Origin: Candidatus Woesearchaeota archaeon
Lineage (GTDB): Archaea; Nanobdellota; Nanobdellia; Woesearchaeales; ARS49
Length of the DNA stretch: 64,000 nucleotides
Direction: 5' to 3'
Assembly (NCBI GenBank): GCA_038891615.1
Contig: JAWADY010000001.1
Coordinates: forward strand, 192,001 to 256,000
Positions within the stretch are counted from its first letter, which is position 1. Every line of letters begins with the position of its first letter. The notes under the pieces are model-generated. The model did no database searches. It saw nothing but the letters and a program-made list of their open reading frames with translations, and was not told the DNA's origin. Positions 2,765-21,090 of the stretch are shown here, one piece after another. A program made the translations under genes and the position numbers.

Positions 2765-3196
2765 TCATGGCAGCTTACAGCCGCTTTTGGAAGCCAATTG
2801 AGCAAAGGTTTGCTCACCACTAACCCTGCTACCATCCCCAAACACCCAAGTTGGATAAGCCATTATTCCAGCTTTGGTACATTCTTTTGTCTGACCTCTT
2901 TCGTTAGGAATTGCGCACTCGACATAGTTAATATATTTCCAGCTCTCACCAAACATTGCTTTTTGGTTCTGGCAATGGGGGCACCAATAAGCGCCATACA
3001 TTTTTACACCAGAATCTGTCAAGCATTTTGCAAAGATGTCAAGCGGTGACATGCTTGTTTCGCCTACGACAGCTCCTCCAGTAGCAGTGCTTCTTGCACA
3101 ACCAACAAGGATAAACGCAGCTAAAAGAGTAATAAAAACAAACACAAATAGGGTTGGATAAACACGATAAGTTCTTTTTTGAAGAGTTGATTCCAT
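2765..3196 (-). CDS. Membrane-anchored thioredoxin-fold protein (VKOR-associated Trx-like), possible lipoprotein
   Basis: MYGAYWCPHC, YVEC, AYPTW; hydrophobic N-terminus ending in lipobox-like LVGC. Confidence 0.85.
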   Translation of the reverse strand: MESTLQKRTYRVYPTLFVFVFITLLAAFILVGCARSTATGGAVVGETSMSPLDIFAKCLTDSGVKMYGAYWCPHCQNQKAMFGESWKYINYVECAIPNERGQTKECTKAGIMAYPTWVFGDGSRVSGEQTFAQLASKSGCKLP

Positions 3197-3322
3197 ATCT
3201 TCACCTCTAATCAGACCTTTGTATATTGTTAGATTGTTGTTTATGTATTCCCCTTATTTTTAGCAGGTAATGTAACATTTAATAATTTTTCGCTTGCATG
3301 ATGTACAAATCAAATTTTAAAT

Positions 3323-3466
3323 TTAAACAAATTTTAAATTTAAATATATCAATATTGCCACAAAGATTATGATGACAAACAAAATTCGCAAAGTTGGGTT
3401 GCGACTTTGAAATTTATCTTTCATTTGCTTTTCACTAACGCCTTTATGACCTGCACAACAATCCAT
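3323..3466 (-). CDS. 47-aa membrane microprotein MDCCAGH...
   Basis: Manual translation MDCCAGHKGVSEKQMKDKFQSRNPTLRILFVIIIFVAILIYLNLKFV; strong SD GGAGAGGTG; one TM helix. Confidence 0.65.
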   Translation of the reverse strand: MDCCAGHKGVSEKQMKDKFQSRNPTLRILFVIIIFVAILIYLNLKFV

Positions 3467-3512
3467 CTTGGCACCTCTCCTTCATTTTATTTAAAATTGT
3501 TCTTTGCGGACC

Positions 3513-3605
3513 TTATTGCTCAAAACAACATTCCAAAACCTCTTTAAGGGTTTTCTTAACTTTTTTCTTCAAACCACCAAGCTTTTTTGCAAGCTCTTCA
3601 ATCAC
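3513..3605 (-). CDS. 30-aa Cys-Cys peptide, or frameshifted C-terminal tail of the upstream gene
   Basis: GTG start with GAGGT 6 nt upstream: MIEELAKKLGGLKKKVKKTLKEVLECCFEQ; lies in the -1 frame of 3608..4039. Confidence 0.45.
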   Translation of the reverse strand: MIEELAKKLGGLKKKVKKTLKEVLECCFEQ

Positions 3606-3607
3606 TT

Positions 3608-4039
3608 TTAGACCTCGCTTGAAACTTTTTCATCCAATGATTGAAGCAGCCAGAAAAGACCGTAAAGGTCAAAAGCTGCCCGCTCGAATTCATAAGCAGT
3701 GTCATTGGACTTTCCAATGTATTTTGTAGCAACTTCCATCAATCTCATTGTTGCTGCAAGCAGGTGCTTGCTAATGCACCATAGCTCACCCTCACGATTA
3801 TGAACCAATTCACCGAGCATCTTTATCCTAAGTTTGCGGACAGCAGCGAGAATTTCAAGGTAATGCTTTCTCTTTGTCTTCATTGCAGTAAAGGCAAGAT
3901 GTTCTTCGAGGCTTATCAAGTTCATCACAGCTATTGAAAGATCTTGACGATGAGTCAAGTCGGCCTTTTCGATATCGGCTTTCTTTTTCCTGCCTTGAGC
4001 CGAGGCTACTTTTGTCCTTTGTGTCATCCTTTGTATCAT
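3608..4039 (-). CDS. Hypothetical all-helical protein
   Basis: DLSIAVMNLISLEEH and WCISKH segments; ATGA overlap with upstream gene. Confidence 0.7.
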   Translation of the reverse strand: MIQRMTQRTKVASAQGRKKKADIEKADLTHRQDLSIAVMNLISLEEHLAFTAMKTKRKHYLEILAAVRKLRIKMLGELVHNREGELWCISKHLLAATMRLMEVATKYIGKSNDTAYEFERAAFDLYGLFWLLQSLDEKVSSEV

Positions 4040-5805: not shown

Positions 5806-5958
5806 TCATCCCTTTTTGCAAAAAGGGGTGATCCTGATAAAGAAATCTAGGTTGAATTTTGCCCAAACTTGATGAGAACCTTTACGATATGTATACGGAA
5901 CATCATAAAATCCTCTGTCAACAGACTTAATCCAAGCATCTATTTTTTGTGCATATTC
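5806..5958 (-). pseudogene. Remnant resembling a type III restriction (Res) C-terminal nuclease region
   Basis: Startless frame [42 protein letters not shown], similar by recall to the Res ...FY.I.Y...FNPDF segment. Confidence 0.55.
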
Positions 5959-8900
5959 ACACAGTAACTAAATTTCCAGCAACTAACTCTGCTTGTTTTA
6001 AAACGGTTTCTGTTGCTTTTTTTTCTTTATCAGGCGGATAGCCATATTTTCTCAGTATTTTCTTTACTTTGAGGCGCAACTCTGCTTGAACACTTTCTCT
6101 TTGTGTCCAGTCTATTGTAACACTTTTTCTTATCATTTGTGTTAGTTCGAGTGCTATTTTTCTTAAGGTTTCGTCACCAAGTATTTTAACTGCGCTATCA
6201 TTGGCTTCAAGTGCATCATAAAATGCAAGTTCATCTTCACTCATTCCAAGCTCTTTTCCCCTGTTTTTTTCTTCTCTAACTTTTCGTGCTAACTCTATTA
6301 ATTCTTCTACAGCTTGCGCAGCCTCTATAGTCCTATTTGTATATTTCTTTATTGTTTTATCCAGCATCTCCATGAAAGATTTGCCTCGAACAAGGTTTCT
6401 TTTTGAAATTATTTTAATCTCATCATTCAATAATTTTTTAAGAGCTTCAAACGCGAGGTTTTTCTGAGGCATATCTCTTACTTCAGCTAGAAAACGCTCT
6501 GATAAAATTGAAAGTTCTGGTTTTTTAATTCCAGCAGCCTCAAATATATCTATAATTCTATCAGAGATTACTGCCTTTGAAATAATCTGTTTGATTGCTG
6601 TTTCATATTCTTCTATTACATCTTTTTTGGTTTCGAGTTTTTTTGACATTGTTAATTTTAATGTCTGAAAAAAGCCAACTTCTTCCTTAATCTTCATGGC
6701 TTTTTCATGAGGAAATGACAAAGATAATGCTTTTACAAGAGCTGTTGCTTCTTTTCTAAATCTTTCTTTTTTCCCTGGCTCTTTTAGTATGTATTCCATT
6801 GCATTTAGCATGAAAGGAAATTTTTCTTTTGGCGAAAGCTCGAAAAATTTCTTGTAATTAAAACCATAAAACATATCTTTAACTATCTCATATTTTTCTA
6901 ACATTAATTTGACAGCCTCTTCTTGGTCCAATATTGGCTTTCCTTTACCGCCACTTAGTGTATAATCCATAAGTGCTTTTTTAAGTTCAGCTCCAACACC
7001 CATATAGTCGACAATCAGACCACCTTCCTTTCCAGGATAAACCCGATTCACTCTTGCTATTGCCTGCATTAGAGTATGACCTTTTATTGGCTTATCAAGA
7101 TACATTGTATGCAGAGATGGCGCATCGAACCCTGTCAAGAACATATCTCTTACGATAAGGAGTTTGATTTCATGTTTTGGGTCCCTAAAATTATCCCCTA
7201 TTCTCTTTCTTCTTTCTTTGTTTCTTATATGCTGCTGCCATTCTTTCGGGTCAGAAGCAGAGCCTGTTATTACGACTTTAATAAATCCTTTATCATCGTC
7301 ATCATTATGCCACTCTGGCCTTAGTTTTATTATCTCGTTATAAAGGTCAATGCATATTCTTCTCGACATACAAACAATCATTCCTTTTCCATCAAGGACA
7401 GAAAGCCTTTGCTCAAAATGATTTACAATGTCTTCTGCAATCCTTCTTATTCTTTTAGGAGCGCCCGCAACCTTTTCAAGACTTGCCCATTTACTTTTAA
7501 GTTTTTCTTTATGCTCTACCTCTTCGCCTTCTGTTACCTCCTCGAACTCTGGATCAATCTTTGGTCTTTCTTCTGGTTTTAACTCCAGCTTTGCTAATCT
7601 GCTTTCGTAAAATATTCCTACAGTAGCACCATCATTAATAGCTTGTTCAATATCATAAATATCAACATATTTTCCAAATACAGCAGGGGTTGATCTATCC
7701 TCTTTTTCTATTGGCGTTCCAGTAAAGCCAATGAATGACGCATTGGGCAAAGCATCTCTTAAGTACTTTGCATAACCATATGTTATAAGCACCTTATCTT
7801 CTTTTTTCAGTATTCTTGCAGGAAAACCATATTGGCTTCTATGAGCTTCATCCGCTATTACAATAATATTGTCTCGCTCTGATAGAGTAGGATACTTTTC
7901 TCTATCATCTTTTGTTTCTGGAAAGAATTTTTGTATAGTAGTAAAAATAATTCCGCCAGAAGCAACTTTAAGTAATTCCATCAGTTCTTTTCTTGTGCTT
8001 GCTTGAACTGGTTCTTGTCTTAATATGTCTTGACACTTGATAAAAGTTCCAAATAATTGGTCATCAAGGTCATTTCTGTCTGTAAGAACAACAATCGTAG
8101 GATTATCCAGTTGTCTAATAATTTTTCCAGCGTAAAAAATCATTGTCAAACTTTTTCCAGAACCCTGAGTGTGCCACACAATACCTGCCTTTTTATTTGT
8201 CCTTCTTGCCTGCAAGGTTGATTCTACTGCTTTATTTGCAGCCCAATACTGGTGATATGCTGCTAATTTCTTTTTTGTTTCTTTATCTTTTTCAAAAACA
8301 ATAAAGTTTCTTACGATATCTAAAAGCTTGTCTTTGTCAAGCATGCCTCTAAGCAAGATTTCTATTTCTGATAGCCCTTTCATCGGTTTTTCTCCTTCTA
8401 TTGTTTTCCACTGCATAAACCTCTCTGGCTCAGAAGTAATCGTGCCTGCTCTTGCATCCATGCCATCGCTAATAACTAAAATTTCGTTATATTTGAACAA
8501 AGAAGGTATCTGTTCTTTATATGTTTGAAATTGATTATATGCTGTCCAGATTGTTGCATCTTTATCTGCAGGGTTTTTTAACTCTATAACAACCAAAGGC
8601 AAGCCATTAACAAACAACACAATATCTGGCCTTCTTTCAGCATTGTTTTCTATTACTGTAAACTGGTTGACTGCAAGAAAATCATTATTTTTTATATCTT
8701 CAAAATCGAACAAATTAATCAAAACGTGCCTTTCTTCACCTGCTTTTGCTATAGGAATGCTGATACCATCTGTAAGCATCCTATGAAAGGTTTCATTGTC
8801 AACAAGCAACTTTTGGCTTCCTATTCTCAAGACTTCCTTTATAGCCTGCTCTCTCACCTCTTCTGAAACCTGCGGATTAATCCTTCTCAAAGCTTCTCTT

Positions 8901-9061
8901 AATCTATCAACAAGCACAACATCTTCATATCTCTGCCTTAGAGCATATTTTCCACCTGGTAAGTAATCCTCATTATTTCCCCTGATTACTTCATAGCCAA
9001 GGCTGCCCAAAACTGACAAAGCAAATTCTTCAACATCCGATTCATGGATTGCTTTTATCAT
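5957..9061 (-). CDS. hsdR: Type I restriction endonuclease subunit R
   Basis: [49 protein letters not shown]. Confidence 0.97.
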
Positions 9062-9462
9062 TTCATCATCTTCTTAAATTTCAAGATTAAATTTTTCAAT
9101 TGTTCCACAACAACCTCTGCTTCTTCCTTTTCAAGCTTTTTTCCATAATAATTTACAGCGTTTCTAGTTTTTCTTAAATTATCAAAAATGTCAGCTTCCC
9201 TAGATAAATTTAATATTTCTTTTAGAAAAGCTGTGTAGCATTCATGATTATAAATTTTGAATCCTTTTTTAATAGGCAATGCTTCTAAAATCTCCCTTAA
9301 TGAATCGTACAATAAAGAAATTTTGCTTATAAGAAATTCATCAGCCAAAGAATCAGTAGAGTTAAATTTTATTTCTGCTGTTTCTAATAAAGATATTATC
9401 ATATTTTTATCCTCTTTCGTCTCTTTTGCAATTCTTTGTTTTAAGCATTCTCTCCAGTCCAT
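9058..9462 (-). CDS. HEPN-domain protein (toxin partner)
   Basis: YNHEC and R-x4-Y type [12 protein letters not shown]; directly downstream of the MNT gene. Confidence 0.75.
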
Positions 9463-9463
9463 C

Positions 9464-9976
9464 TTACCAGTTCCCTTTTATTTTGAAACCATTTAATATA
9501 TTTTTAAGCAAATTTTCACTTTTTACATCTTCAATTCCTCTAAAAACAAAAATCTGTATTCTCCTTTTTAGCAATTTTTCAAATTTCTCAAGATTAATTT
9601 CTTTTTTCGTTGGTGTAAAAATTGCAAGATCAATATCAGAATCAATCTTTGCTTCTCCTTTTGACAAAGAGCCAAAAAGATAAACTATTGGAGTTAATAA
9701 ATTCTTTTCCAATTCTTTCAATAAGCCGGAATCTTCTAATATTTTTTTCCAATAAATTCTTGATAACTCTACGAAAAGCTCAGAATCCTTATTTACAAAA
9801 TAATAATTATAAATCTTCTCTTTTTCTTTTTTGAGCAAGCCTTCTTTATACAAGTTTTCAAGAATCTTTGAAGCTGTCGGCGGGCTTATTTTTTGAATTC
9901 TTGCATACTCGCGAACATTAATCCGACTATAGCAATCTTCAAAGAAAGGCTTCAAAGTGTTAAATATTTCTAACAT
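9464..9976 (-). CDS. wHTH + minimal nucleotidyltransferase (MNT antitoxin)
   Basis: HTH VREYARIQKISPPTASKIL; LFGSLSKG...SDIDLAI. Confidence 0.88.
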   Translation of the reverse strand: MLEIFNTLKPFFEDCYSRINVREYARIQKISPPTASKILENLYKEGLLKKEKEKIYNYYFVNKDSELFVELSRIYWKKILEDSGLLKELEKNLLTPIVYLFGSLSKGEAKIDSDIDLAIFTPTKKEINLEKFEKLLKRRIQIFVFRGIEDVKSENLLKNILNGFKIKGNW

Positions 9977-10081: not shown

Positions 10082-11461
10082 TTAAGCAGATTTTTTAATC
10101 TCCCTTTCCATCTCTTTTATCATCTCAGCAGGCACTCTAATTTTGCCAGACATAAGTTTAGGAAGGAGAGAATCGCGAAGTTGGGAGAAGGTGAGGGATT
10201 CTTTTAAGTTATTATAAATTCGATTATAGATAATAGTTAATATATTTTCAAAAATATCTAAAACTTTTTTTTCAGGTATTAAAATTTTTGTTGATTTAAT
10301 GTGATTTAAATTAATTATTGGCATAGTGCTTCCTGAAGATATTCTTTCCCAATATTTCTCTTCGGATAGTCTTTTAAGGAAGATAAATAAATAGAATCTT
10401 CCTATTTTGTTTTCGTCTATTGTTATTTTTGCTAAACGACTTACTATTACAGCCTTATCATAAATATCAGTCATAATCCCTAGTAATCCTAGAGTCCCCG
10501 TTTTTGATATAATTATATCTCCTTTTTTAACAGAACTCCTTTTAACTTCTTGAAATTTTTTTTCTGATATAAAATGCTTAAATGGCTTATATAAAGGATA
10601 ACCTTCCAAGTATTCCATTTCGATAATAGGAATTCCAGAATTTTGATATTCTGTTATTTTCATTTGTGTTCCGAATGGTCCATCGACTATTGAATTTTTC
10701 TCATCAGAGGATATATCTTCGATTTTCCCAACCCTCCACCCCTTAGGTATCTCTTTGCCGAGCTCTTCATTATAAACCATTTCTCCGCCAGAGCTTTTGT
10801 AAGGCTTACCCTCTTCATTCGGAAACTCAAAATCAACAAACCAGTGCTTGAAAATTGCCTGGCCAATTGCCTCAAGGGTTTTGTTCATTCGCTGGTTGAG
10901 TTCGATCTTATCATCAAATGCCGAAAGAACTTTAGCAATGGCGCGTTGCTCGGGGAGGGGCGGGATAGGAAGTTCTACATCCTTAAAAGTGTTTGTAGTT
11001 ATGGTTTCAAAAACAGTTCCATAAGATACAGATCTAATCTTATTTATCGAGTTTTTAATCGAATAATAGAGGTATATTACATCATATTCTTTTTTTGGTT
11101 GTAAACCATAACATGTCTGATTAAAAGTCATCGGCTCTGGTAATAATGCTATTGCACCGACAGTCCCTCTCGAAGTAATTACAATTGTATTTTTTGGATG
11201 GATTTTTGCATTGCTATTCTTTACTCCCTCTTCGGTTATTGTTCTTTCTGTAACTGTTACATATCGCGACTTAACATTTGCAATATCCCTTGCAGTTGCC
11301 CATTTAAATTTTCCATCCCAAAAATATTTAATTTCTGTTTTAGGGGTTCCCCCTAATGAAATATCGCATGTTTCACTAATAGATTTAACCTCCCAATCCT
11401 CAGGGATCATTCCGATTTCAGTTTGTTTGAATTTGGGTTTATTTTGGGTTTGAGGGTTCAT
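10082..11461 (-). CDS. hsdS: Type I R-M specificity subunit S
   Basis: Two TRDs, PPLPEQRAIA, LRDSLLPKLMSG; likely start ATG 11461 ([17 protein letters not shown]), not 11560. Confidence 0.95.
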   Translation of the reverse strand: MNPQTQNKPKFKQTEIGMIPEDWEVKSISETCDISLGGTPKTEIKYFWDGKFKWATARDIANVKSRYVTVTERTITEEGVKNSNAKIHPKNTIVITSRGTVGAIALLPEPMTFNQTCYGLQPKKEYDVIYLYYSIKNSINKIRSVSYGTVFETITTNTFKDVELPIPPLPEQRAIAKVLSAFDDKIELNQRMNKTLEAIGQAIFKHWFVDFEFPNEEGKPYKSSGGEMVYNEELGKEIPKGWRVGKIEDISSDEKNSIVDGPFGTQMKITEYQNSGIPIIEMEYLEGYPLYKPFKHFISEKKFQEVKRSSVKKGDIIISKTGTLGLLGIMTDIYDKAVIVSRLAKITIDENKIGRFYLFIFLKRLSEEKYWERISSGSTMPIINLNHIKSTKILIPEKKVLDIFENILTIIYNRIYNNLKESLTFSQLRDSLLPKLMSGKIRVPAEMIKEMEREIKKSA

Positions 11462-13046
11462 TTTTAACCACCATAAGTAATATACAGTTGTTATTGTTGT
11501 CTGGCACTTTGATAATCTCAATATTTGGCATTTTTGTCCTTTCTTGAAGTGATTTAACAATTGTTTTTATTCTATCATCATCAAACTTAGAAATAGGAAT
11601 AGGTTCAAATTGTTTTGTTTTTTCATTTGCACCAATGATATATACCTTTATATTAGACTCCTTCACCTTTTTACTAAGGTCGCTAGCAAAATAAGAAACT
11701 ATTTCATCGTTACTACCTGAAAAAACATCCGAAGATTTCAATTCTAGTATTTCGTTTTCAGTATTTACAAAACTAATGTCAAAAGTTGAATTTTCAAATA
11801 TCTTTTTAGATAGGCAATTTAAAAAATAACAAATAGGTTTATCTTCATTCTCTATGGCTAATAATTTTAAAATAGAGCCCAATAAAATACTATTAAATGA
11901 GTCTCTTATTTGCATTTTTTCATAATAATCTAAAAGTATTTTACTTAATTCTTTCTGTAGCTCGTTATAAATCTCCATGTTTTTTATTTTAATTGAGTTT
12001 GCGGATATTCTACAGCCTGCATGATAAACTCTGAAAGATTCGTTATTCAATAATTTAGTTTTAATTTCTTCTAAGAAACTTCCCCGAATTTCTATGCTAT
12101 TGTCTGAAAATAGTATTAGGAAGTTAGGATTTGTCTTTTTAATTATCACGTTGCCGTCTTGTTTTACAACATTATTCTTATCATCAAATATTTTTTCCTG
12201 ATATGGAATGATAGAATTTTTTAACTTTATGTATTCTTCATTATAATAACTCAGATTATATCGTTTTGCTAAAAAATCTTGTACAAAATCATCATAATTT
12301 GTATATGGCTTCCTACCAACTTTGACTAATGACAACGGTATTCTTTCTATCGGAGCAGGTAAAATTATTTGTTTGTCCTTGACCTTAAACGCTTTTTCTT
12401 CTATAAACTTTTTCTCGAAATCGTCATCACTTAATTCTAAAGAAAAAGGAACCCCGCTTACTTCACCACAAAATTTATTTTTACCGCCCAAATATTCAAA
12501 TGCCACTTTTTGAGGTATACCTAACCAGTTAGCAAAGAACACAGAAGGATTAGTTTCATAAAAAATAACATCAATACTATCTTTCTCATTTTTAAAGTAA
12601 ACAAATCTCAGGATATTATCTTTATCAAGCATTCTGTCTATAACCTCCCATTTGGGTGTAATGGTTTCCTCACCAAAGAGGCTATGACAAAGTATGACAA
12701 ATTCGGATGTGACTATACAAATCGCATATTTCTCTTCCATCCTCATTCTGGTGTTCATTTCGTCGCTAAAATCGTTAAGTAATTCTTTTGCGTCTCTGTC
12801 ATCTATTAAAGGATAAGAGGAAATCAAATTTTTAATCCAAATTTGACAATTCTCCTTTAATTGAATTTCATCAAATTTTTTTCTTTTACCTAAATTTAAT
12901 AACGAATTAACAACCTTCGTTATTTTATCTTTATCTACTTTTCTGGTTATTTTATCTTGGTTAATATCATTCTCAATTACTTTCTTTGAATATACGAATG
13001 TTGGCTCTCCCTTATTTTGATTTGTAATCATTATTACACACTCCAC
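11439..13046 (-). CDS. Hypothetical protein with C-terminal Schlafen/AlbA_2-like domain, inserted in the R-M operon
   Basis: AT-rich 535-aa ORF overlapping hsdM and hsdS; C-terminal [10 protein letters not shown]...VYIIGANE pattern. Confidence 0.6.
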
Positions 13047-14557
13047 CCCAGCATCTCCAAATTTCTTTTTATTTCTTCATCTAGCTTTTTGCTCTCTTCC
13101 ATTTGCTGTTTGAGTTCTGCTGTGAGTTTTTTCATTTTTTCTTCAAAAACTTCTTCTGGCTCTTCTTGTTCTTCAAAGCCGACATAACGGCCTGGTGTTA
13201 AAATGAAATTATTTTTTTCAACTTCTTGTAATGAAGCAGATTTGCAAAAACCAGGGATGTCTTTATATCCAAGTTTGTTTTCTCCTCTCCATGCATGGTA
13301 AGTATCGGCAATTTTCTTTATTTCATCATCAGTTAATTCTCTATGTCTTCTATCAATCATTACGCCCATTTTTCTGGCATCGATAAACAGAATCTTTCCT
13401 CGTCTATCTTTGAACTTGTTATCTTTTTTATCACGAGCAATAAACCATAAACAAGCTGGAATCATTGTGTTGTAGAACAGCTGCGATGGCAAAGCGACAA
13501 TACAATCTACGAGGTCTGCTTTGATAATATTTTTTCTTATTTCTCCTTCGTTAGAAGTCATTGAGCTTAAAGAGCCGTTAGCAAGAACAAAACCAGCAAT
13601 TCCTGTTGGTGATAAATGATGGATAAAATGCTGTACCCATGCAAAATTGGCATTTCCTTTTGGTGGAACACCAAACTTCCACCTAACATCTTCTTGTAAT
13701 AACTCGCCGCCCCAGTCTGAATCATTAAAAGGAGGATTTGCTAGGATAAAATCAGCCTTCAAATCCTTGAATTGGTCGTCATGAAAAGAATCACCCCACT
13801 TAATGTTTGCGTCAATTCTTCTTATCGCAAGGTTCATTTTGCACAGACGCCACGTTGTCTGGTTGCTTTCTTGACCATAAATTGAAATATCTCCAATCTT
13901 TCCACCATGAGCTTCAACAAATTTTTCTGATTGAACAAACATTCCTCCTGAACCACAACAAGGGTCAAATATTCTTCCTTTGTATGGTTCAAGCATTTCA
14001 ACAAGCAATTTTACAATGCATCTCGGTGTGTAGAACTGACCGCCTTTTTTGCCTTCTGCAGATGCAAATTGTCCAAGAAAATATTCGTAAACTCTTCCAA
14101 GAATGTCTTTGCTTTTGTTTTCTTTATCACCTAGCCCAATCGTGCCAATTAAATCTATTAGTTCTCCTAGGCGCTGCTTGCTTAATGCTGGCCTTGCATA
14201 AATCTTTGGGAGAACACCTTTTAATGAGGGATTATCCCTTTCGATATCCTCCATTGCATGGTCTATGAGTTCTCCAATTTCTGGCTTTTTTGCATTAGCC
14301 TGCAAATACTCCCATCGCGCTTCTTTTGGAACCCAGAAAACTCTTCTTGCAAGATATTCGTCAACATCTTCTGGATCAGCTTCTGGGTCTTTTTTTAATT
14401 CTTCATAAACTTCTTTAAAAGAGTCGGAAATGTATTTTAAGAATATTAAACCTAAAACAACATGCTTGTATTCTGCAGCATCCATATTGCTTCTCAACTT
14501 GTCTGCAGCCTGCCAGAGCTTCTCTTCGAAACCTAAATTCGCACTATTAGTTTTCAT
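13034..14557 (-). CDS. hsdM: Type I R-M methyltransferase subunit M
   Basis: [18 protein letters not shown]. Confidence 0.97.
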
Positions 14558-14640
14558 CTTATTTCACCTTTTTTCTTTCTCGGAGTATTCCAATAAGGGC
14601 TTTTGCACTTAGGACATACTTTTGGCTCTTTGGTTGTTGA
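14554..14640 (-). pseudogene. C-terminal half of a small Zn-ribbon protein
   Basis: KEPKVCPKCKSPYWNTPRKK with ATGA overlap into hsdM; first CxxC pair and a convincing start are missing. Confidence 0.45.
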
Positions 14641-14779
14641 ATCTGGGAGAGTTTCAGATAAAAATCTTTCTCTTGCTCGCAAGATTAGATGGGCTTTTAA
14701 AATGACCTTTAATATGAGCGTGGTAACAAAGTATAAATACAAAAGATTTATAAGGCTTAAAACAAAAAAGGTGAAAAAA

Positions 14780-14989
14780 ATGGCAAAAGAGACAAAGGAT
14801 AGGTTGTTGCGGGGCATTGTTGGAGCAGTTCTGCTTTTTTACTCGCTGCCAGGACTGTTCATTTCAGGCTTTTATGGCGGAATGATGATGGGCAGAATGT
14901 TTTTGGGAACAGGAGGCAGCTTTTTTGTTTCCATTCTGCTAGCACTAATTGGTGTTTGGCTGCTTTATGATGCTATAAAGCCACAGTAG
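14780..14989 (+). CDS. Small 2-TM membrane protein with Met/Gly-rich loop
   Basis: SD AGGTGA before ATG 14780; FYGGMMMGRM loop. Confidence 0.65.
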   Translation: MAKETKDRLLRGIVGAVLLFYSLPGLFISGFYGGMMMGRMFLGTGGSFFVSILLALIGVWLLYDAIKPQ

Positions 14990-15040
14990 AAGAGCAGTAA
15001 AAGAGAAAAATTTTTAATCGCCTTTCATAAATTTTTGTAA

Positions 15041-16333
15041 GTGGTAGGGGTACACTTTAAGACTTTTGGATGCACTGCAAACTTTTCAGATAGCGAGATA
15101 ATGAAGGGGCTCTTAAAAAGTGCTTCTTACGAGGTTGTCGACAATGCGGAAAATGCAAGCGTCATTGTGGTAAATGTTTGCACTGTAAAAGGAGACCAGC
15201 ATGCGCTTGCAGAAATTAAAAAGACTTCACTGGAAAATCCAGGAAAAAAATTGATTATTGCTGGTTGCGTGACTAAAAGCTTGCTAGAAAGGGTAAAGGC
15301 TGAAATTCCTGATGTCAGCTTTCTTAATACTCACAACATAAAAAAAATTGATTTTGTTGTAAACAGCACGCTTTCAGACAGGCCGGTTAGTCTTATATCA
15401 GGCTCTAATGAACCAAAAACAGGTCTTCCAAAGGTTAGAAAGAATCCTGTTGTTGGCATAATACAAATCGCAACTGGTTGTGATAGTTTCTGCTCTTTTT
15501 GCAGCACAAAGCTAATCAAAGGAAGGCTACAATCTTATTCGCCCTCATCAATCGTGCAAGAGGCTGCTGAATGTATTAAAGAAGGATGTAAAGAAATATG
15601 GCTGACTGCAACCGATACCAGCTGCTATGGCCTTGACATTGGTACAAACCTTCCAAAACTTGTAAAGGTATTGACAAGGCTTGATGGCGAATTCATGATT
15701 AGGATTGGCATGGCAAATCCAAAACACGTCCTGCGTTATCAGGATGAGCTAATAGAAGCTATATCTAATCCAAAAGTTTTCAAGTTTTTACATCTCCCTG
15801 TACAATCTGGCAATGACAGAGTGTTGAAAGCCATGAAAAGAGAATATACAGTGGAAGAGTATAAAAAATTGGTGTCCAGAATAAAAAAAGAAATTCCAGA
15901 GATTACAATTGCCACGGACATAATTGTAGGATTTCCTGGAGAAACCTTCGAAGAATTCATTGACTCTGTTAGATTGGTGGAAGAAACCAGGCCAGATGTG
16001 TTGAACATATCGCGATTTGTGCCAAGAGGTGGGACTCAAGCAATTAGGATGCCGAATCAGGTTCCAGAAATTGAGAAAAAGATGCGTAGCAGACTGCTTA
16101 CACGGGTTTATTGGAATGTTGCGCTTGAGCAAAACCTCCGATGGCTGGGCTGGAAAGGGTTGTGCATCATCGATGAGGTTGGAAAGCATGGCACATTGAT
16201 TGGGCGAAATTTTGCCTACAAACCAATCGTTTTACGGGGCACTCACAAGCTAGGAAGCATTGTTGAAGTAGAAATTTTAGCTGCTGAAAAATTCAACTTA
16301 AGAGATAAATCAGCAATAAAGGCTGAGGTTTAG
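15041..16333 (+). CDS. mtaB: tRNA t6A37 methylthiotransferase (archaeal MtaB/CDKAL1-like radical SAM)
   Basis: UPF0004 TFGC..N..DSE, CDSFCSFC, HLPVQSG, DIIVGFPGET, C-terminal TRAM-like region. Confidence 0.88.
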   Translation: MVGVHFKTFGCTANFSDSEIMKGLLKSASYEVVDNAENASVIVVNVCTVKGDQHALAEIKKTSLENPGKKLIIAGCVTKSLLERVKAEIPDVSFLNTHNIKKIDFVVNSTLSDRPVSLISGSNEPKTGLPKVRKNPVVGIIQIATGCDSFCSFCSTKLIKGRLQSYSPSSIVQEAAECIKEGCKEIWLTATDTSCYGLDIGTNLPKLVKVLTRLDGEFMIRIGMANPKHVLRYQDELIEAISNPKVFKFLHLPVQSGNDRVLKAMKREYTVEEYKKLVSRIKKEIPEITIATDIIVGFPGETFEEFIDSVRLVEETRPDVLNISRFVPRGGTQAIRMPNQVPEIEKKMRSRLLTRVYWNVALEQNLRWLGWKGLCIIDEVGKHGTLIGRNFAYKPIVLRGTHKLGSIVEVEILAAEKFNLRDKSAIKAEV

Positions 16334-16343
16334 CTTAAGCAAA

Positions 16344-17024
16344 ATGAAGATAGAATATGTTTGTCAAAGAAACATCGTCCGCAGCCCAACTTTTGAGGCA
16401 GTTAGTAAGTATTTTATTGCAAAAAAAAATCTGGAAGAACTGATTGAGATTTCTTCTTCAGGAATTGATGTTGATAGATTCAACAGAGGCCAGCTTAGGC
16501 CAGATGAGGTGTACAAGACTTTTGGATATTTAATTGAAGCCCAAAAGAAAAAAAAGCTGGCTGATGAGAATTTAATGCAAAAAGTTATTATAGAATACAC
16601 GAATAGAATAATAAATTCGGATACAATTCTCCTTGCAAAAAAAGCCTTGACTCTGTTTGAAGCGTATTGCGGCGAGATGCGAGATATTGCCCTTTTACAA
16701 AAGGGTATACCACTTCTGAAAGATTGGCGTTATCCCGAATCGCTAAAACAAACAAAGGAAGGTGATGCAAAGATAATAGTTGTATTGGCAAAGGAATATA
16801 TCGACTTTGTAAAAAAAATTTATTCTAACAGAAAGTCTAATGAGAAGCCAAAAATCCTTTCAATTACAGATTTTGGTGAAGAGCCAAAGGCTTATGGCTT
16901 TGAAGTAGCCGATTTTGGCGCAATTGTCGAGATTGCCTTGAAAAGCGTTCCAAATCTCATTGATTATTGCTGTACAAAAGGATATGTGCGTTTGGTAAAG
17001 CCAAATCAACTAATAGACTCTTGA
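16344..17024 (+). CDS. LMW-PTP/ArsC-like phosphatase-fold protein with helical insertion
   Basis: N-terminal C-X5-R loop YVCQRNIVRSP and ISSSG. Confidence 0.6.
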   Translation: MKIEYVCQRNIVRSPTFEAVSKYFIAKKNLEELIEISSSGIDVDRFNRGQLRPDEVYKTFGYLIEAQKKKKLADENLMQKVIIEYTNRIINSDTILLAKKALTLFEAYCGEMRDIALLQKGIPLLKDWRYPESLKQTKEGDAKIIVVLAKEYIDFVKKIYSNRKSNEKPKILSITDFGEEPKAYGFEVADFGAIVEIALKSVPNLIDYCCTKGYVRLVKPNQLIDS

Positions 17025-17215
17025 TTTCAACGAAAGCTTTATAAATGGATGCTTAACAATCTCAATTCTCAGAGCAGTCCCAAATGGTTCCAAATGCTTT
17101 CAAAAAATTCTCAACATAAAAAATGTTTCCACAAGCACATAGCCAACACAGTCAAAGTCATAAAATTAAATTAAAATTAAATAGAAGGATGAAAGTGAGT
17201 GAAGCGTCAAAAGCC

Positions 17216-17328
17216 GGGCCGGTAGCTCAACCCGGTAGAGCAGCGGACTTTTAGCGCAAATAGCATGTTACTTAAAGTGCAAAGTGTAAGCAATCCGTTG
17301 GTTGCGGGTTCAAATCCCGTCCGGCCCG
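17216..17328 (+). tRNA. tRNA-Lys(TTT) with 39-nt intron at 37/38 (17254-17292)
   Basis: GGGCCGG/CCGGCCC, D-arm GCTC/GAGC, anticodon stem GCGGA/TCCGT, loop CTTTTA, T-arm GCGGG-TTCAAAT-CCCGT; BHB with one U.U in the central helix. Confidence 0.9.
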
Positions 17329-17331
17329 TTT

Positions 17332-17464
17332 CACCGAACGCCAGCGAGGAGCGTCGCAGCAAGGGAACGAAGTGACCGTTGGCGAGACGCCCGCAGCAAG
17401 TGAGGTGAAACCACCGAACGCTAGGGAGCGTCGCAGCAAGGGAACGAAGTGACCCTAGTGCGAC
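17332..17464 (+). repeat. Duplicated GC-rich structured element
   Basis: Identical 30-mer GGAGCGTCGCAGCAAGGGAACGAAGTGACC at 17348-17377 and 17425-17454, each preceded by CACCGAACGC. Confidence 0.85.
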
Positions 17465-17492
17465 CTGAGAATCAAAAATATTAAAAGGAAAG

Positions 17493-17747
17493 ATGGTTAA
17501 AATGGCTACACCAAAGTTTGATGTAACAAAACACTTTCTTGTACCCAAGCACATTAAGGTGAGTGAAAAGGAGCTAAAAGAGTTAACTGAAAAGTTCGCA
17601 CTCGCTCCAGATTCCTTCCCGAAAATACTTGCAAGCGACCCTGCGATTGAGCACCTCAAAGCAAAAGAAGGTGATGTGATAAAAATCATTCGATGGTCCC
17701 CAACAGCTGGCGAGGCGGTGTATTACAGGCAGGTGATTAAGGGCTAA
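17493..17747 (+). CDS. rpoH: RNA polymerase subunit Rpo5 (H)
   Basis: HFLVPKH, PKILASDP, SPTAGEAVYYR. Confidence 0.96.
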   Translation: MVKMATPKFDVTKHFLVPKHIKVSEKELKELTEKFALAPDSFPKILASDPAIEHLKAKEGDVIKIIRWSPTAGEAVYYRQVIKG

Positions 17748-17748
17748 A

Positions 17749-19254
17749 ATGTCTGCTGAAACAAGGATACTCCTCAAAAAATATTTTGAAGAAAACTCAT
17801 TTGTACGCTCGGATATAGAATCCTTTAATGATTTCGTTGACCGAGAGCTGCATAATATTGTTGAAGAAAACAAAATAATAGAACCAACAATTATCCCTCC
17901 AAATGTTGAAAAATTCCAGATAAGGCTAGACGGGATATCTGTTGAGAAGCCAGAAATTATTGAAGCAGATGGCAGCAGGAGACCCATTTATCCGACTGAG
18001 GCAAGACTAAGAAAAATAACCTACGCAGCTCCTATTTACTTAGACATCAGTTCGCACATAAATGATGTTCAGCGCGAAAGCTTCACTCCACAAATAGGAA
18101 ACCTACCAATAATGCTGAAGTCAAAATACTGCCATCTTAATGGCCTTAGCGAAGAACAGCTTGTGGAAAAAGGCGAAGACCCATACGACCCAGGAGGTTA
18201 TTTCATCATAAATGGCACTGAGCGCATACTTGTTCATGTAGAAGACCTTGCTGCAAACAGGTTTATCGTTGAAAAAACAGGGGGTGTCAGCGAGTATACT
18301 GGAAGAATTTTCTCTGAATGGGGAAGTTACAAAATTCCGCACACTTTAGAAATGCTAAAAGACGGGCTTTTATACCTTAGCTTTAGCGGAAGAGCAAAGC
18401 GCATACCTCTCATAGTTGTCATAAAGGCTCTTGGCCTTATTAAGGATGAGGAAATTGTTAATTTTGTATCGCGTGAAAGGCAGTACGATGAAGTGCTTAT
18501 AAACCTTTTTGAATATTCCGGCATTAAAACATCAGAGGACGCAATGGAATGGATTGCAAAAGAGATTGGTATAACACAAGCAAAGGAAGTCAGACTTGAA
18601 AGGGTTTCTGAAATTTTGGACCGATTTCTTTTGCCACACATCGGTGTATCACAACATGCAAGAATAGCAAAGGCGTGGAACCTGTGCAAAATGATAAGAA
18701 AATATCTGGCAGTCGCCAATGGTGAAATAGAACCAGACGATAAAGATCACTATATGAACAAGCGCCTTAAGATGGCTGGCGACCTTCTAGCAGATCTCTT
18801 TAGGGTCAATCTTAAAATAATGATAAATGACCTTCTTTACAATTTCCAACGAAGTGTTAAGCGTGGCAAGTTTCCTTCAATAAAAACCCTTGTGAGGGAG
18901 AAGCTACTAACTTCAAGGATTTATAGCGCGATGGCAACTGGCAACTGGGTTGGTGGGCGAAAGGGAATATCTCAGAGGATTCAAAGATTAAACAACCTGA
19001 ATACTTTGAGTCATCTACAAAGGGTTGTTTCACCCTTATCCTCAACGCAAGAGAACTTCGAAGCAAGAGCGCTTCACCCAACACACTTAGGAAGACTTTG
19101 CCCAGTTGAAACCCCTGAAGGAATTCCGATTGGTTTGAGAAAAAATCTTTCACTACTTGCTTCGGTTTCACTCGAGTCGCCTGAAGAAGAAATACTTAAG
19201 GTCCTGAGGTCTGCAGGCCTCAAAGAGCTCCAGCTAGAGCGACCTGGAAAGTAA
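17749..19254 (+). CDS. rpoB2: RNA polymerase subunit Rpo2N (B'')
   Basis: EARLRKITY, DPGGYFIINGTE, CPVETPEG. Confidence 0.96.
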   Translation: MSAETRILLKKYFEENSFVRSDIESFNDFVDRELHNIVEENKIIEPTIIPPNVEKFQIRLDGISVEKPEIIEADGSRRPIYPTEARLRKITYAAPIYLDISSHINDVQRESFTPQIGNLPIMLKSKYCHLNGLSEEQLVEKGEDPYDPGGYFIINGTERILVHVEDLAANRFIVEKTGGVSEYTGRIFSEWGSYKIPHTLEMLKDGLLYLSFSGRAKRIPLIVVIKALGLIKDEEIVNFVSRERQYDEVLINLFEYSGIKTSEDAMEWIAKEIGITQAKEVRLERVSEILDRFLLPHIGVSQHARIAKAWNLCKMIRKYLAVANGEIEPDDKDHYMNKRLKMAGDLLADLFRVNLKIMINDLLYNFQRSVKRGKFPSIKTLVREKLLTSRIYSAMATGNWVGGRKGISQRIQRLNNLNTLSHLQRVVSPLSSTQENFEARALHPTHLGRLCPVETPEGIPIGLRKNLSLLASVSLESPEEEILKVLRSAGLKELQLERPGK

Positions 19255-19258
19255 CAAA

Positions 19259-21061
19259 ATGACAGAAGTTTATCTTAATGGCAAGTTTGTCGGCGATGTT
19301 GAAAGTCCTGAAGATTTCATTAGACACATAAAAAGTGAAAGAAGGAAAGGATTGATAACCCAGAATCTTAATGTCTATTATGACAAAAGGCTCGAGAGGA
19401 TTGAAGTTGAAGCAGGTCATGGAAGGGTTAGACGACCATTGATAGTTGTGCGCGATGGCCAACCTCTTCTAACAGAAAAGCACATCAAACAACTTGAAGC
19501 AGGAGAAATAAAGTGGAGCGATCTTATCAGACAGGGAGTGATAGAGTATCTTGACGCGTCTGAAGAAGAAGATGCGCTTGTTGCATTTTCTCCAAAAGAG
19601 CTAACGCCAGAACACACTCATCTCGAGATTACCCCACTTGCAATGCTTGGCCTTGTAACAAGCCTTGTACCATATGCAAACTTCATCATGCCAGTTAGAT
19701 TGATAATCGGTTCAAAAAATCTCCGACAATCAATAGGTTTTTACACAGCGAATTATCCGTTGCGGATGGATATGGACATAGGTCTGTTGCACTATCCACA
19801 AGTTCCAATTGTAAAAACAGCCATGCATGACATTTCACACTATGAACGCTATCCAGCGGGCCAAAACATTGTTATTGCTGTGATTGGGTATGAAGGCTAT
19901 AATATGGAAGATGCAATAGTCATTAACAAAGGTAGCATCCAACGCGGTTTTGGAAGGTCGACCTATTTCCGTCCTGTCATAAGCGAAGAGTTACGCTATT
20001 CAGGAGGTCTAATGGATAGGATCTGCATACCTGATAAAGATGTCAAGGGCTATAGATCTGAAAAAGATTACAGATTTCTTGAAGATGATGGAATTGTTTA
20101 TCCAGAAGCCAGGGTAAAAGAAGGAGACGTCGTCATTGGAAAAACCTCCCCACCAAGGTTCTTAAGCGCATTTGAGGAGTATGGGCTGGCTGCAAACATA
20201 AGAAGGGAAAGCTCAGAAGTGCTAAAGCATGGCGAGGGAGGGATTGTTGATTTTGTACTAATTACTGAAAACGAGGAAGGCAACAAATCAGTGCAGGTGA
20301 GAATAAGGGATCAAATGATACCTGAAATTGGGGATAAATTCATTTCAAGACATTCCCAAAAAGGTGTTGTTGGATTAATTGTTCCGGAGAGCGACATGCC
20401 CTTTACCGCTTCAGGAATCAGGCCTGACATACTTTTTAGTCCACATTCGATACCTTCAAGAATGACTATATCGCATCTCCTTGAGCTTATTGGAGCAAAG
20501 GTTGGCGCGCTTGCCGGAAGGGAAGTAGATGCAACAGCCTTTGAAGGCGAGCCGGAAGAAGCGCTGAGACAGGAACTTCTTAGATTAGGTTTCAACGAGA
20601 AAGGTATTGAGACGATGTATAATGGAATTACCGGCGAACAATACAAAGTAAAAATATTCGTTGGCCCTATGTACTACTTGAAACTTAAGCATCTTGTTGC
20701 CAACAAGATACAGTCCAGGGCACGTGGGCCAATCCAGTTGCTTACAAGGCAGCCAACTGAAGGGCGGGCAAAAGAGGGAGGGCTGAGACTTGGAGAGATG
20801 GAAAAGGACACCTTTGTGGCGCACGGGGCTGCACTCCTGCTAAAAGAGCGTTTTGATTCTGATAAGACGGTAGTTCCAGTGTGTGAAAATTGCGGGCTAA
20901 TTGCCATCCACGACAGCTATAAGAAAAAACGCTATTGCCTGGTTTGTGGTGAAAATGTTGAGATAAATGATATTGAAATTAGCTATGCTTTCAAACTTAT
21001 GCTTGACGAACTAAAAGCTATGGGAATTTATCCGAAAATGAGTCTTAAAACAAAATACTGA
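19259..21061 (+). CDS. rpoB1: RNA polymerase subunit Rpo2C (B')
   Basis: GYNMEDA, GDKFISRHSQKG, GGLRLGEME, C-terminal Zn Cys pairs. Confidence 0.97.
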   Translation: MTEVYLNGKFVGDVESPEDFIRHIKSERRKGLITQNLNVYYDKRLERIEVEAGHGRVRRPLIVVRDGQPLLTEKHIKQLEAGEIKWSDLIRQGVIEYLDASEEEDALVAFSPKELTPEHTHLEITPLAMLGLVTSLVPYANFIMPVRLIIGSKNLRQSIGFYTANYPLRMDMDIGLLHYPQVPIVKTAMHDISHYERYPAGQNIVIAVIGYEGYNMEDAIVINKGSIQRGFGRSTYFRPVISEELRYSGGLMDRICIPDKDVKGYRSEKDYRFLEDDGIVYPEARVKEGDVVIGKTSPPRFLSAFEEYGLAANIRRESSEVLKHGEGGIVDFVLITENEEGNKSVQVRIRDQMIPEIGDKFISRHSQKGVVGLIVPESDMPFTASGIRPDILFSPHSIPSRMTISHLLELIGAKVGALAGREVDATAFEGEPEEALRQELLRLGFNEKGIETMYNGITGEQYKVKIFVGPMYYLKLKHLVANKIQSRARGPIQLLTRQPTEGRAKEGGLRLGEMEKDTFVAHGAALLLKERFDSDKTVVPVCENCGLIAIHDSYKKKRYCLVCGENVEINDIEISYAFKLMLDELKAMGIYPKMSLKTKY

Positions 21062-21090
21062 AAAGGCACAAAAAATAAAATAACAGCAAA

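Follow-up and report, generated by a model that had tools for sequence, protein, structure and literature searches.

What is the role of an intact, AT-rich gene of no annotated family that lies between the methyltransferase and specificity genes of an archaeal type I restriction-modification (R-M) operon? The question is raised by a 64,000-nucleotide (nt) stretch of a Candidatus Woesearchaeota archaeon (assembly GCA_038891615.1, contig JAWADY010000001.1, positions 192,001 to 256,000; hereafter the window, whose first letter is position 1), in which a minus-strand frame, 11439..13046, runs without interruption for 535 codons between hsdM and hsdS. A reading of the window from its letters alone (the sequence-only reading) had singled out this open reading frame (ORF), here called gene X, as AT-rich and as a candidate new antiviral effector; the frame is intact as described, with a G+C content of 0.256-0.296 over 11500-12999, that of hsdM being 0.356-0.382 and that of the genes at 16000-21500 being 0.40-0.46. 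Our best description of X is a Schlafen sensor-effector of a divergent and mostly archaeal family, with a predicted YejK-fold sensor domain and a recurrent place between hsdM and hsdS. Residue numbers follow the 535-amino-acid (aa) ORF (P0001) beginning at the GTG at 13046, with V1 as the first residue. The features of X are:

11439..13031, minus strand: gene X, 530 codons plus stop from the ATG at 13031; the ORF extended to the GTG at 13046 encodes 535 aa
12510..13016, minus strand: predicted YejK/NdpA-N-domain-like domain, residues 11-179, ending in FFANWLG (model and VIA-align)
11946..12509, minus strand: middle alpha/beta region, residues 180-367 (confident model)
11766..11945, minus strand: three-helix linker, residues 368-427 (DSSP; VIA-align ranges begin at 369-390)
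11442..11765, minus strand: predicted Schlafen/AlbA_2 nuclease core, residues 428-535 (profile against the PDB, Foldseek, VIA-align)
11736..11759, minus strand: predicted catalytic motif E430-x4-E435-x-K437, ENEILELK (translation; conservation)
11620-11622, minus strand: third acidic residue, E475 (conservation; pairing with SLFN13)

A predicted Schlafen/AlbA_2 nuclease domain at the C-terminus

The sequence-only reading had likened the last ~105 aa of X to Schlafen/AlbA_2 proteins and quoted two motifs, ENEILELK (11736-11759) and VYIIGANE, both of which are found in the translation, as is the N-terminal stretch that it had also quoted. It proposed a structure search domain by domain, and the C-terminus does model as a Schlafen/AlbA_2 fold. 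A profile of the family, built from a 78-sequence alignment (A2), had as its best match among PDB sequences the N-domain of rat SLFN13 (5yd0, E = 0.036, profile positions 426-512). With the AlphaFold2 model of full-length X (mean predicted local distance difference test, pLDDT, 84.9) as the query, Foldseek returned this same structure, 5yd0_A, as its sole PDB match at E<=1e-3 (E = 8.1e-4), followed in rank by SLFN14, SLFN5, SLFN11, SLFN12 and SAMD9. VIA-align superposed X ~369-532 on the Schlafen C-lobe of 5yd0_A (chain residues 179-318) with Z 10.9 and a root-mean-square deviation (rmsd) of 2.7 over 125 aligned residues; 16 Schlafen entries scored Z 8.7-10.9, the AlbA_2 domains of SAMD9 scored Z 7.8 and 7.5, two bacterial AlbA_2 structures Z 7.5 and 6.2, and the first unrelated fold Z 6.0. 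A protein atlas gave AlbA_2 clusters at no more than the level of leads (scores 0.83-0.86).

The predicted active site is conserved together with the fold. ENEILELK is an exact fit to E-x4-E-x-K, and in A2 the glutamates at 430 and 435 are present in 74 and 75 of the 78 sequences, K437 and G472 in all 78, and an E or D at position 475 in 73; the strict motif occurs within the last 160 residues of 77 of the 93 family proteins of at least 480 aa. E-x4-(E/D)-x-K is the named catalytic motif of the prokaryotic Schlafens, where the double substitution E15A/D20A abolishes defense (PMC13056530). The alignment of A2 with 5yd0 pairs E430, E435 and E475 with E205, E210 and D248 of rat SLFN13, given an index offset of 13 residues deduced from the length of the construct. 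Rat SLFN13 is a tRNA/rRNA endoribonuclease in which mutation of these three residues reduces or abolishes cleavage, E205A and E210A being fully inactive (PMC5862951). Together, the predicted structure and the conserved catalytic motif support the assignment of the C-terminus of X, at the level of the superfamily, to a divergent Schlafen/AlbA_2 member that lies beyond the reach of the Pfam model PF04326.

A predicted YejK-fold domain at the N-terminus

Residues 6-367 of X, folded alone from an 86-row alignment, gave a model with pLDDT 92.4. When this was compared by VIA-align with 48,161 chains, the only one with Z>=8 was YejK (9be2_A), residues 1-190 of which superpose on X 11-179 (Z 10.1, rmsd 4.0, 160 aligned residues), the next chain scoring Z 5.6. 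A second VIA-align comparison had the same outcome for YejK; in it CENP-L scored Z 5.0 and 4.8, and Z was 3.6-3.9 for three KwaB entries, KwaB having scored Z 3.8 in the first comparison. The KwaB alignments covered 129-134 residues. Foldseek found no match for the N-terminal model at E<=1e-3, its top probabilities being 0.51 for KwaB and 0.47 for Escherichia coli YejK; hence, the YejK match comes from the exhaustive VIA-align search alone. In its succession of strands and helices the model follows the topology published for the YejK N-domain, a domain for which weak similarity to RdgC and CENP-N has been noted (PMC11229321). At the sequence level, the Pfam model NA37 (PF04245) has no match in the genome at E<=10, and hhalign of the X family against a narrow YejK alignment (sequences 80-91% identical) gave a probability of 1.2%; in the one segment that it aligned, FFANWLG of X lies opposite FFMDFLG of YejK, which is the register seen in the structural match.

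Thus, X resembles YejK/NdpA in the N-domain fold, in the order of its strands and helices and in the location of an FFxxWLG / FFxDFLG motif. It differs from YejK in that the YejK C-domain was not found by VIA-align (all alignments end at chain residue 190; in YejK this domain, with its dimerization arm, forms the DNA clamp), in that the basic patch is not conserved under the inferred register, and in having no NA37 match. YejK is a DNA clamp with R173, R176 and K177 as its DNA-binding basic residues (PMC11229321); on the evidence of the model we assign X a YejK-fold domain, from which we do not conclude YejK-like DNA clamping. The N-terminal likeness that the sequence-only reading had seen, to NdpA and KwaB, accordingly divides in two: the NdpA part is borne out by the fold, and the KwaB part is present as a weak match that falls far below YejK. 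In the comparison with KwaB (DUF4868) of the Kiwa system there is only this weak N-terminal likeness, with no DUF4868 sequence match; no KwaA-like membrane partner was noticed in the scans of the operon, none of which was a search aimed at KwaA.

A conserved module with an exchanged effector

The middle region (residues 180-367), as part of the 6-367 model, had no VIA-align match above Z 4.5. H342 and N361 are near-invariant in it, and position 288 is D or E in 78 of 78 sequences; with H121, N144, R138, D141 and E164 of the preceding domain, D288, H342 and N361 make up the most conserved polar residues of the N-terminal module, and their conservation suggests a specific site, either for binding or for catalysis. 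A P-loop or other NTPase was considered for X and set aside, there being no family match and no GxxxxGK[ST] motif on reading the sequence.

A relative of 738 aa, P0064, aligns with X 14-426 almost without gaps (BLASTP, 33% identity, E 1e-72), and the similarity stops four residues ahead of the Schlafen motif. In place of the Schlafen core, P0064 has a C-terminal PRTase-CE domain (PF24390, E 1.5e-46), which is listed as a partner domain of type III-A retrons (PMC13712802). The linker aligns structurally with the helices ahead of the Schlafen C-lobe, yet in P0064 it remains with the N-terminal module. This replacement implies that residues 1 to ~427 of X form a unit able to drive different effector domains, and at the level of sequence architecture it is direct evidence for X being built, as expected of a sensor-effector immunity protein, from a putative sensor module and a swappable effector. 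In another relative, P0127 (622 aa), the equivalent of X 259-419 (the middle region and linker) lies at the C-terminal end, preceded by ~450 residues without a Pfam match; this may be another rearranged, or a truncated, architecture of the module.

Family and genomic neighborhoods

X has 19 full-length relatives of 33-73% identity; those with an organism name come from archaeon HR04, Candidatus Methanoperedens and Methanosarcina spelaei and are all labeled "hypothetical protein". In a library clustered at 50%, 166 representatives match X at E<=1e-3, of which 131 pass E<=1e-10 and 78 pass E<=1e-30; the majority are 510-600 aa in length and align with X from end to end. Given these relatives, X is more than a chance ORF. 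Nearly all relatives that carry an organism name are archaeal. Their spread is patchy: a match at E<=1e-10 was found in 2 of 301 genomes of the order to which the window belongs (223 of the 301 being at least 90% complete), relatives are borne by three archaeal plasmids, and a tblastn search of phage records with X gave no match. X is an accessory gene, as is seen from its presence in 2 of 301 genomes, its occurrence on plasmids and its low G+C content.

Loci were collected from GTDB genomes, from metagenomes (with a 20-sequence alignment as the query), from genomes of the same order, from a stretch designated G097 and from plasmids. Copies whose X DNA was at least 94% identical were collapsed, which left 24 lineages including the window, and neighbors were called by tblastn with the Hsd proteins of the window together with Pfam and PADLOC scans. 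In 11 lineages clearly, and in one more probably, X is the immediate same-strand neighbor of type I hsd genes, and other defense or methylase systems adjoin it in a further six. The full order hsdM-X-hsdS is present in seven lineages (window, L005, L007, L018, L019, L023 and L034), the remaining members of the hsd-adjoining group being cut by contig ends. The neighborhoods are:

Clearly adjoining hsd genes: window, L005, L007, L008, L018, L019, L023, L024, L026, L028, L034
Probably adjoining hsd genes: L029, a short contig with an N6_Mtase fragment upstream
Type I system within ~5 kb on the other strand: L001, L004
HmaB/HmaC beside X: L014-L022 group
Type IIG methylase and PDC-S54 beside X: L012/L013
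Avs1b-like giant ATPase and PIN protein beside X: L006/L027
PtuA-like ATPase, HNH and integrases beside X: L009
Thermococcus plasmid on which a helicase and a methylase are followed after 7 nt by X, with AbiEii lying beyond: L036
Haloarchaeal megaplasmid with X next to an "AAA-4" (AlbA_2) protein and DUF262: L035
No recognizable neighboring system: L002, L003 group, L025, L037

Thus, the linkage of the family to defense loci, those of type I R-M among them, is strong, in agreement with the expectation, raised by the sequence-only reading, that homologs would show such linkage. The X relative of the Woesearchaeota lineage is immediately preceded, on its own strand, by a 388-aa ORF (L003 134-1300, L011 439-1605) that has no Pfam or PADLOC match and may be a partner gene.

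The constancy of the slot is not paralleled by the divergence of the genes that occupy it. In an HsdM group made up of the window, L018 and L034, the HsdM proteins are 68-73% identical, and the corresponding X identities are 50%, 24% and 24% (window versus L034: X 24%, HsdM 70%). In a second group, L019 and L023, HsdM identity is 67% and X identity 36%; the two HsdM groups are mutually 31-35% identical. Conversely, X of the window is 64% identical to that of archaeon HR04 (L001), where X is not embedded, with HsdM identity at 23-25%. Hence, with the slot itself unchanged, X either evolves much faster than the restriction genes or undergoes exchange independently of these.

The host operon

On the minus strand of the window the operon runs hsdM-X-hsdS-MNT-HEPN-hsdR, tightly packed, with a 105-nt gap between hsdS and MNT:

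13034..14557, minus strand: hsdM, type I methyltransferase subunit (Pfam PF02384 E 4.5e-115, PF12161 E 5.1e-27)
10082..11461, minus strand: hsdS, specificity subunit (PF01420 E 2.1e-43 in two stretches; the ORF reaches the TTG at 11560)
9464..9976, minus strand: winged helix-turn-helix (wHTH)-MNT nucleotidyltransferase, antitoxin-like (PF01909 E 1.7e-9; PADLOC PDC-M05A 1.4e-14)
9058..9462, minus strand: HEPN-like partner of MNT (PADLOC PDC-M05B 1.5e-7; no Pfam match at threshold)
5957..9061, minus strand: hsdR, restriction/translocase subunit (PF04313 1.1e-51, PF18766 8.3e-83, PF11867 1.8e-125)

X had been described as overlapping both of its neighbors. The overlap with hsdS stands, the stop codon of X (11439-11441) lying 23 nt within hsdS, given the inferred hsdS start at ATG 11461, which is preceded by GGTGG. 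The overlap with hsdM depends on the start of X, which is probably the ATG at 13031 (530 aa) rather than the GTG at 13046 (535 aa): GGTGGAG precedes this ATG, the hsdM stop lies 2 nt upstream of it, and P0011, a database fragment of X, begins there with MITNQ. The 13-nt overlap exists only with the GTG start and is therefore probably an artifact of the ORF extension. In an alignment of the relatives (A1), the column of V1 is preceded by 3-17 columns in 17 of 19 and by 27 columns in the other two; since most relatives begin upstream of V1, the alignment alone leaves the start of X unfixed.

The MNT-HEPN pair, which the sequence-only reading had placed in the same operon, is found there between hsdS and hsdR as the PADLOC candidate system PDC-M05A/B, so that the operon holds two embedded modules, X and the pair. 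In L028, two ORFs of 163 and 170 aa (3063-4020), the second with a weak PIN_4 match (E 6e-4), occupy the position of the MNT-HEPN pair between hsdS and hsdR. L005 (5116-9551), which belongs to an uncultured archaeon, has its hsdM in two ORFs and, ahead of hsdS, three embedded genes: one for a 131-aa AlbA_2-HTH (helix-turn-helix) protein (PF04326 E 7.6e-13), one for a RiboL-PSP HEPN protein and that of the X relative. This operon would accordingly carry two Schlafen-type domains. L034, which comes from G097 of the same order (11510-17726), has hsdM, a 24%-identical X relative and hsdS, then ORFs of 281 and 163 aa followed by a Fic/DOC protein, hsdR and a DpnI-like gene. Type I operons such as L034 are hubs for embedded genes.

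At the head of the operon of the window, an 87-aa ORF (14554-14817, minus strand) overlaps the start of hsdM by 4 nt; its N-terminal half is hydrophobic, its C-terminus, CPKCKSPYWNTPRKKKG, is zinc-ribbon-like, and a Pfam scan gave no significant match. This ORF may encode a small membrane protein or a controller-type protein of the operon. ARAGORN found no tRNA genes in the entire window. The host genome measures 661 kb in five contigs and is 97.9% complete.

Proposed mechanism and alternatives

We consider it rather probable that X is an autonomous, single-chain Schlafen-type (t)RNase sensor-effector defense protein embedded in R-M loci. The first ~425 residues, comprising the YejK/NdpA-fold domain, the alpha/beta region and the helical linker, would act as the sensing or regulatory module, and the last ~105 residues as a metal-dependent endoribonuclease core of the Schlafen type that is kept inactive in the resting state. 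The N-terminal module would read an infection cue, for which a viral protein or some state of nucleic acid is the likeliest candidate; the Schlafen domains would then pair, and this oligomerization would activate them to cut tRNA or other RNA, whereupon translation would stop and the infection would be aborted. X would need no contact with the Hsd proteins, and the slot between hsdM and hsdS would allow a second defense layer to be co-transcribed and co-transferred with the restriction enzyme. A more specific proposal, which we put forward tentatively as possible rather than probable, is that a YejK-like sensor of DNA state, or a target of DNA-mimicking anti-restriction proteins, is wired to a Schlafen tRNase at the hsdM-hsdS junction, such that viruses that escape or disable type I restriction would trigger a shut-off of translation, with the same module driving PRTase-CE-type effectors elsewhere. 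If this were true, X would unite two recently described concepts in one chain: its family would serve archaea as a portable "anti-anti-restriction" sensor and would for the first time connect sensing of the YejK type with a Schlafen effector.

The sequence-only reading had instead taken X for an R-M-guarding sensor-RNase and had compared it with PrrC. As a guard of the PrrC kind, X would be held latent by HsdM, HsdS or HsdR and freed as an RNase when a viral anti-restriction protein disables the enzyme. On balance we regard such guarding as unlikely. It would account for the recurrence of the hsdM-X-hsdS slot in seven lineages across two HsdM groups that are 31-35% identical and for gene junctions with gaps or overlaps of 1-4 nt in the window, L023 and L034, and it has a precedent in PrrC itself, a latent RNase carried within a type I locus (10.1101/2024.01.29.577857). 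Against it, 12 of the 24 lineages have no adjacent hsd gene, including Methanosarcina spelaei (53% identity to X) and archaeon HR04 (64%), and the discordance of X and HsdM identities argues against a co-evolving interface; together these make an obligate PrrC-style partnership less likely and favor an autonomous module for which the hsdM-hsdS junction is a docking site. Moreover, X has no match (Pfam, PADLOC, NCBIfam) to an ABC-ATPase or NTPase domain such as PrrC and RloC possess.

We think two further alternatives quite improbable. X might be a non-cleaving nucleic-acid-binding accessory whose YejK-like and AlbA_2 domains bind DNA or RNA and thereby modulate restriction, methylation or expression of the operon, as would suit the hsdM-hsdS position of a subunit-like protein and the behavior of YejK as a DNA clamp (PMC11229321), of KwaB, which binds DNA without cutting it (PMC11785009), and of the SAMD9 AlbA_2 domain, which was crystallized with DNA (7ksp). 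However, a protein that only binds would not need the Schlafen active site, with its lysine and three acidic positions, to be near-invariant, the exchange for an enzyme-type effector, PRTase-CE, in P0064 fits an effector role, the basic patch is not retained in the inferred register, and many relatives have no R-M neighbor. Alternatively, the Schlafen domain might cut DNA, making X an additional restriction-type nuclease for invading or damaged DNA recognized by the YejK-like domain; this would sit well with the DNA binding of both fold relatives of the N-terminal domain, YejK and KwaB, and with the linkage of X to DNA-directed systems (type I R-M, Hma and IIG methylases). It is opposed by the characterized prokaryotic Schlafens, which cleave tRNA and of which RorSlfn5 shows no DNA damage response (PMC13056530), by the cleavage of tRNA by the CRISPR-associated Schlafen Cash (PMC13462974) and by the tRNA/rRNA endoribonuclease activity of rat SLFN13 (PMC5862951). 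Least probable of all, and in our view hardly credible, is a selfish addiction module in which X would stabilize a mobile R-M cassette as a toxin-like protein alongside MNT-HEPN and have no antiviral role. The patchy distribution (2 of 301 genomes), the occurrence of X on plasmids and next to integrases and the operon shared with a toxin-antitoxin-like pair are in its favor; yet no cognate antitoxin travels with X, the genes between X and hsdS or hsdR varying by locus, and the large conserved N-terminal module suits a sensor better than a simple toxin.

Several points weigh against the autonomous Schlafen sensor-effector that we favor. AlbA_2 domains also occur in nucleic-acid binders that have no known cleavage activity, so that catalysis by X is a prediction. 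Searches with the sequence of X came back empty from Pfam (E<=0.1), from PADLOC and NCBIfam (E<=1) and from PDB sequences (E<=10), and Pfam PF04326 (SLFN_AlbA_2) has no match in the whole genome at E<=10; when it is compared with single members of A2, weak matches appear in 5 of 78, the best at E 0.0027. The Schlafen assignment rests on a predicted structure, one marginal profile match and a short motif. Strict motif spacing is absent from 16 of the 93 long relatives, one of which has another C-terminal domain and one no C-terminus, the other 14 showing variants of the form E-x(3-6)-E/Q-[FY]-K. YejK-like DNA clamping through the same basic residues was considered and set aside, R173/R176/K177 falling on FYETN of X in the inferred register. 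The neighborhood counts are raw, without a random-gene baseline for proximity to R-M genes. Finally, a physical partnership with the methylase would likewise explain why X is so closely coupled to hsdM and hsdS and why it keeps one slot in R-M families that are only 31-35% identical.

Relation to known systems

To call X a new effector, as was initially proposed, is an overstatement, since both Schlafen tRNase defense with unannotated sensor fusions (PMC13056530) and BREX-embedded Schlafen backups (PMC12839542) have been published. The prokaryotic Schlafens (pSlfn; Perez Taboada et al., Nat Microbiol 2026) are phage-defense tRNases fused to many types of sensors, 17.2% of them to domains without a Pfam or ECOD match, in 55 architectures and 558 clusters (PMC13056530). 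Like pSlfn and Cash, X combines one AlbA_2/Schlafen domain bearing E-x4-(E/D)-x-K with a larger, non-catalytic module and resides in defense neighborhoods. Unlike pSlfn, its Schlafen domain is C-terminal and too divergent for PF04326, its family is mainly archaeal where named, and it has a recurrent fixed slot in type I R-M operons; a YejK-fold module is also absent among the architectures named in the available portion of that work (HisKinase, HTH, DUF5929, Ig-like, DUF262 and TBP-like; PMC13056530). The family of X may nevertheless be among its 558 unannotated clusters.

The embedding itself has parallels. Genes embedded in type I R-M, bacteriophage exclusion (BREX) and Hma systems are a recognized source of defense genes, with PrrC as the classic case (10.1101/2024.01.29.577857); a term search of the available text of that preprint finds neither "Schlafen" nor "AlbA". 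X is like PrrC and RloC, the latter of which couples a DNA-damage-type sensor to a tRNase (PMC3874168), in being a predicted RNase inside a type I R-M operon that is likely to form a back-up layer, and unlike them in having no ABC-ATPase/Rad50-like or HEPN-type nuclease match (Pfam, PADLOC, NCBIfam) and in lying between hsdM and hsdS. BREX and BREX-related (BR) loci contain Schlafen RNases with a different architecture, which the authors read as backup suicidal effectors (NAR 2026, PMC12839542). X shares with these the placement of a Schlafen-family RNase, predicted in its case, within a methylation-based defense operon, and differs in its host system, which is type I R-M rather than BREX/BR, and in its sensor module. 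YejK-like proteins have been proposed in PANGU to be infection sensors that activate separate toxic effectors (10.64898/2026.04.06.716658), whereas in X the predicted sensor and effector are joined in one chain; in the part of that preprint available, the ten described clusters are without Schlafen and the word does not occur. A literature search found, among the matches listed, no paper combining Schlafen with YejK or NdpA.

Significance

Schlafen antiviral nucleases are already known from humans, from bacteria and from archaeal genome surveys. X extends this theme to a divergent, mostly archaeal family that is missed by curated sequence models, one member of which lies in a reduced genome of 0.66 Mb that still devotes ~8.6 kb to this operon. 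Its predicted sensor module of ~425 residues, with a YejK-type domain, appears to be exchanged between effectors and is directly testable for what it senses. The hsdM-hsdS junction emerges as a recurrent docking site for second-line defense genes, and this docking site can guide searches for embedded systems in the archaea, where defense against viruses has been little studied experimentally.

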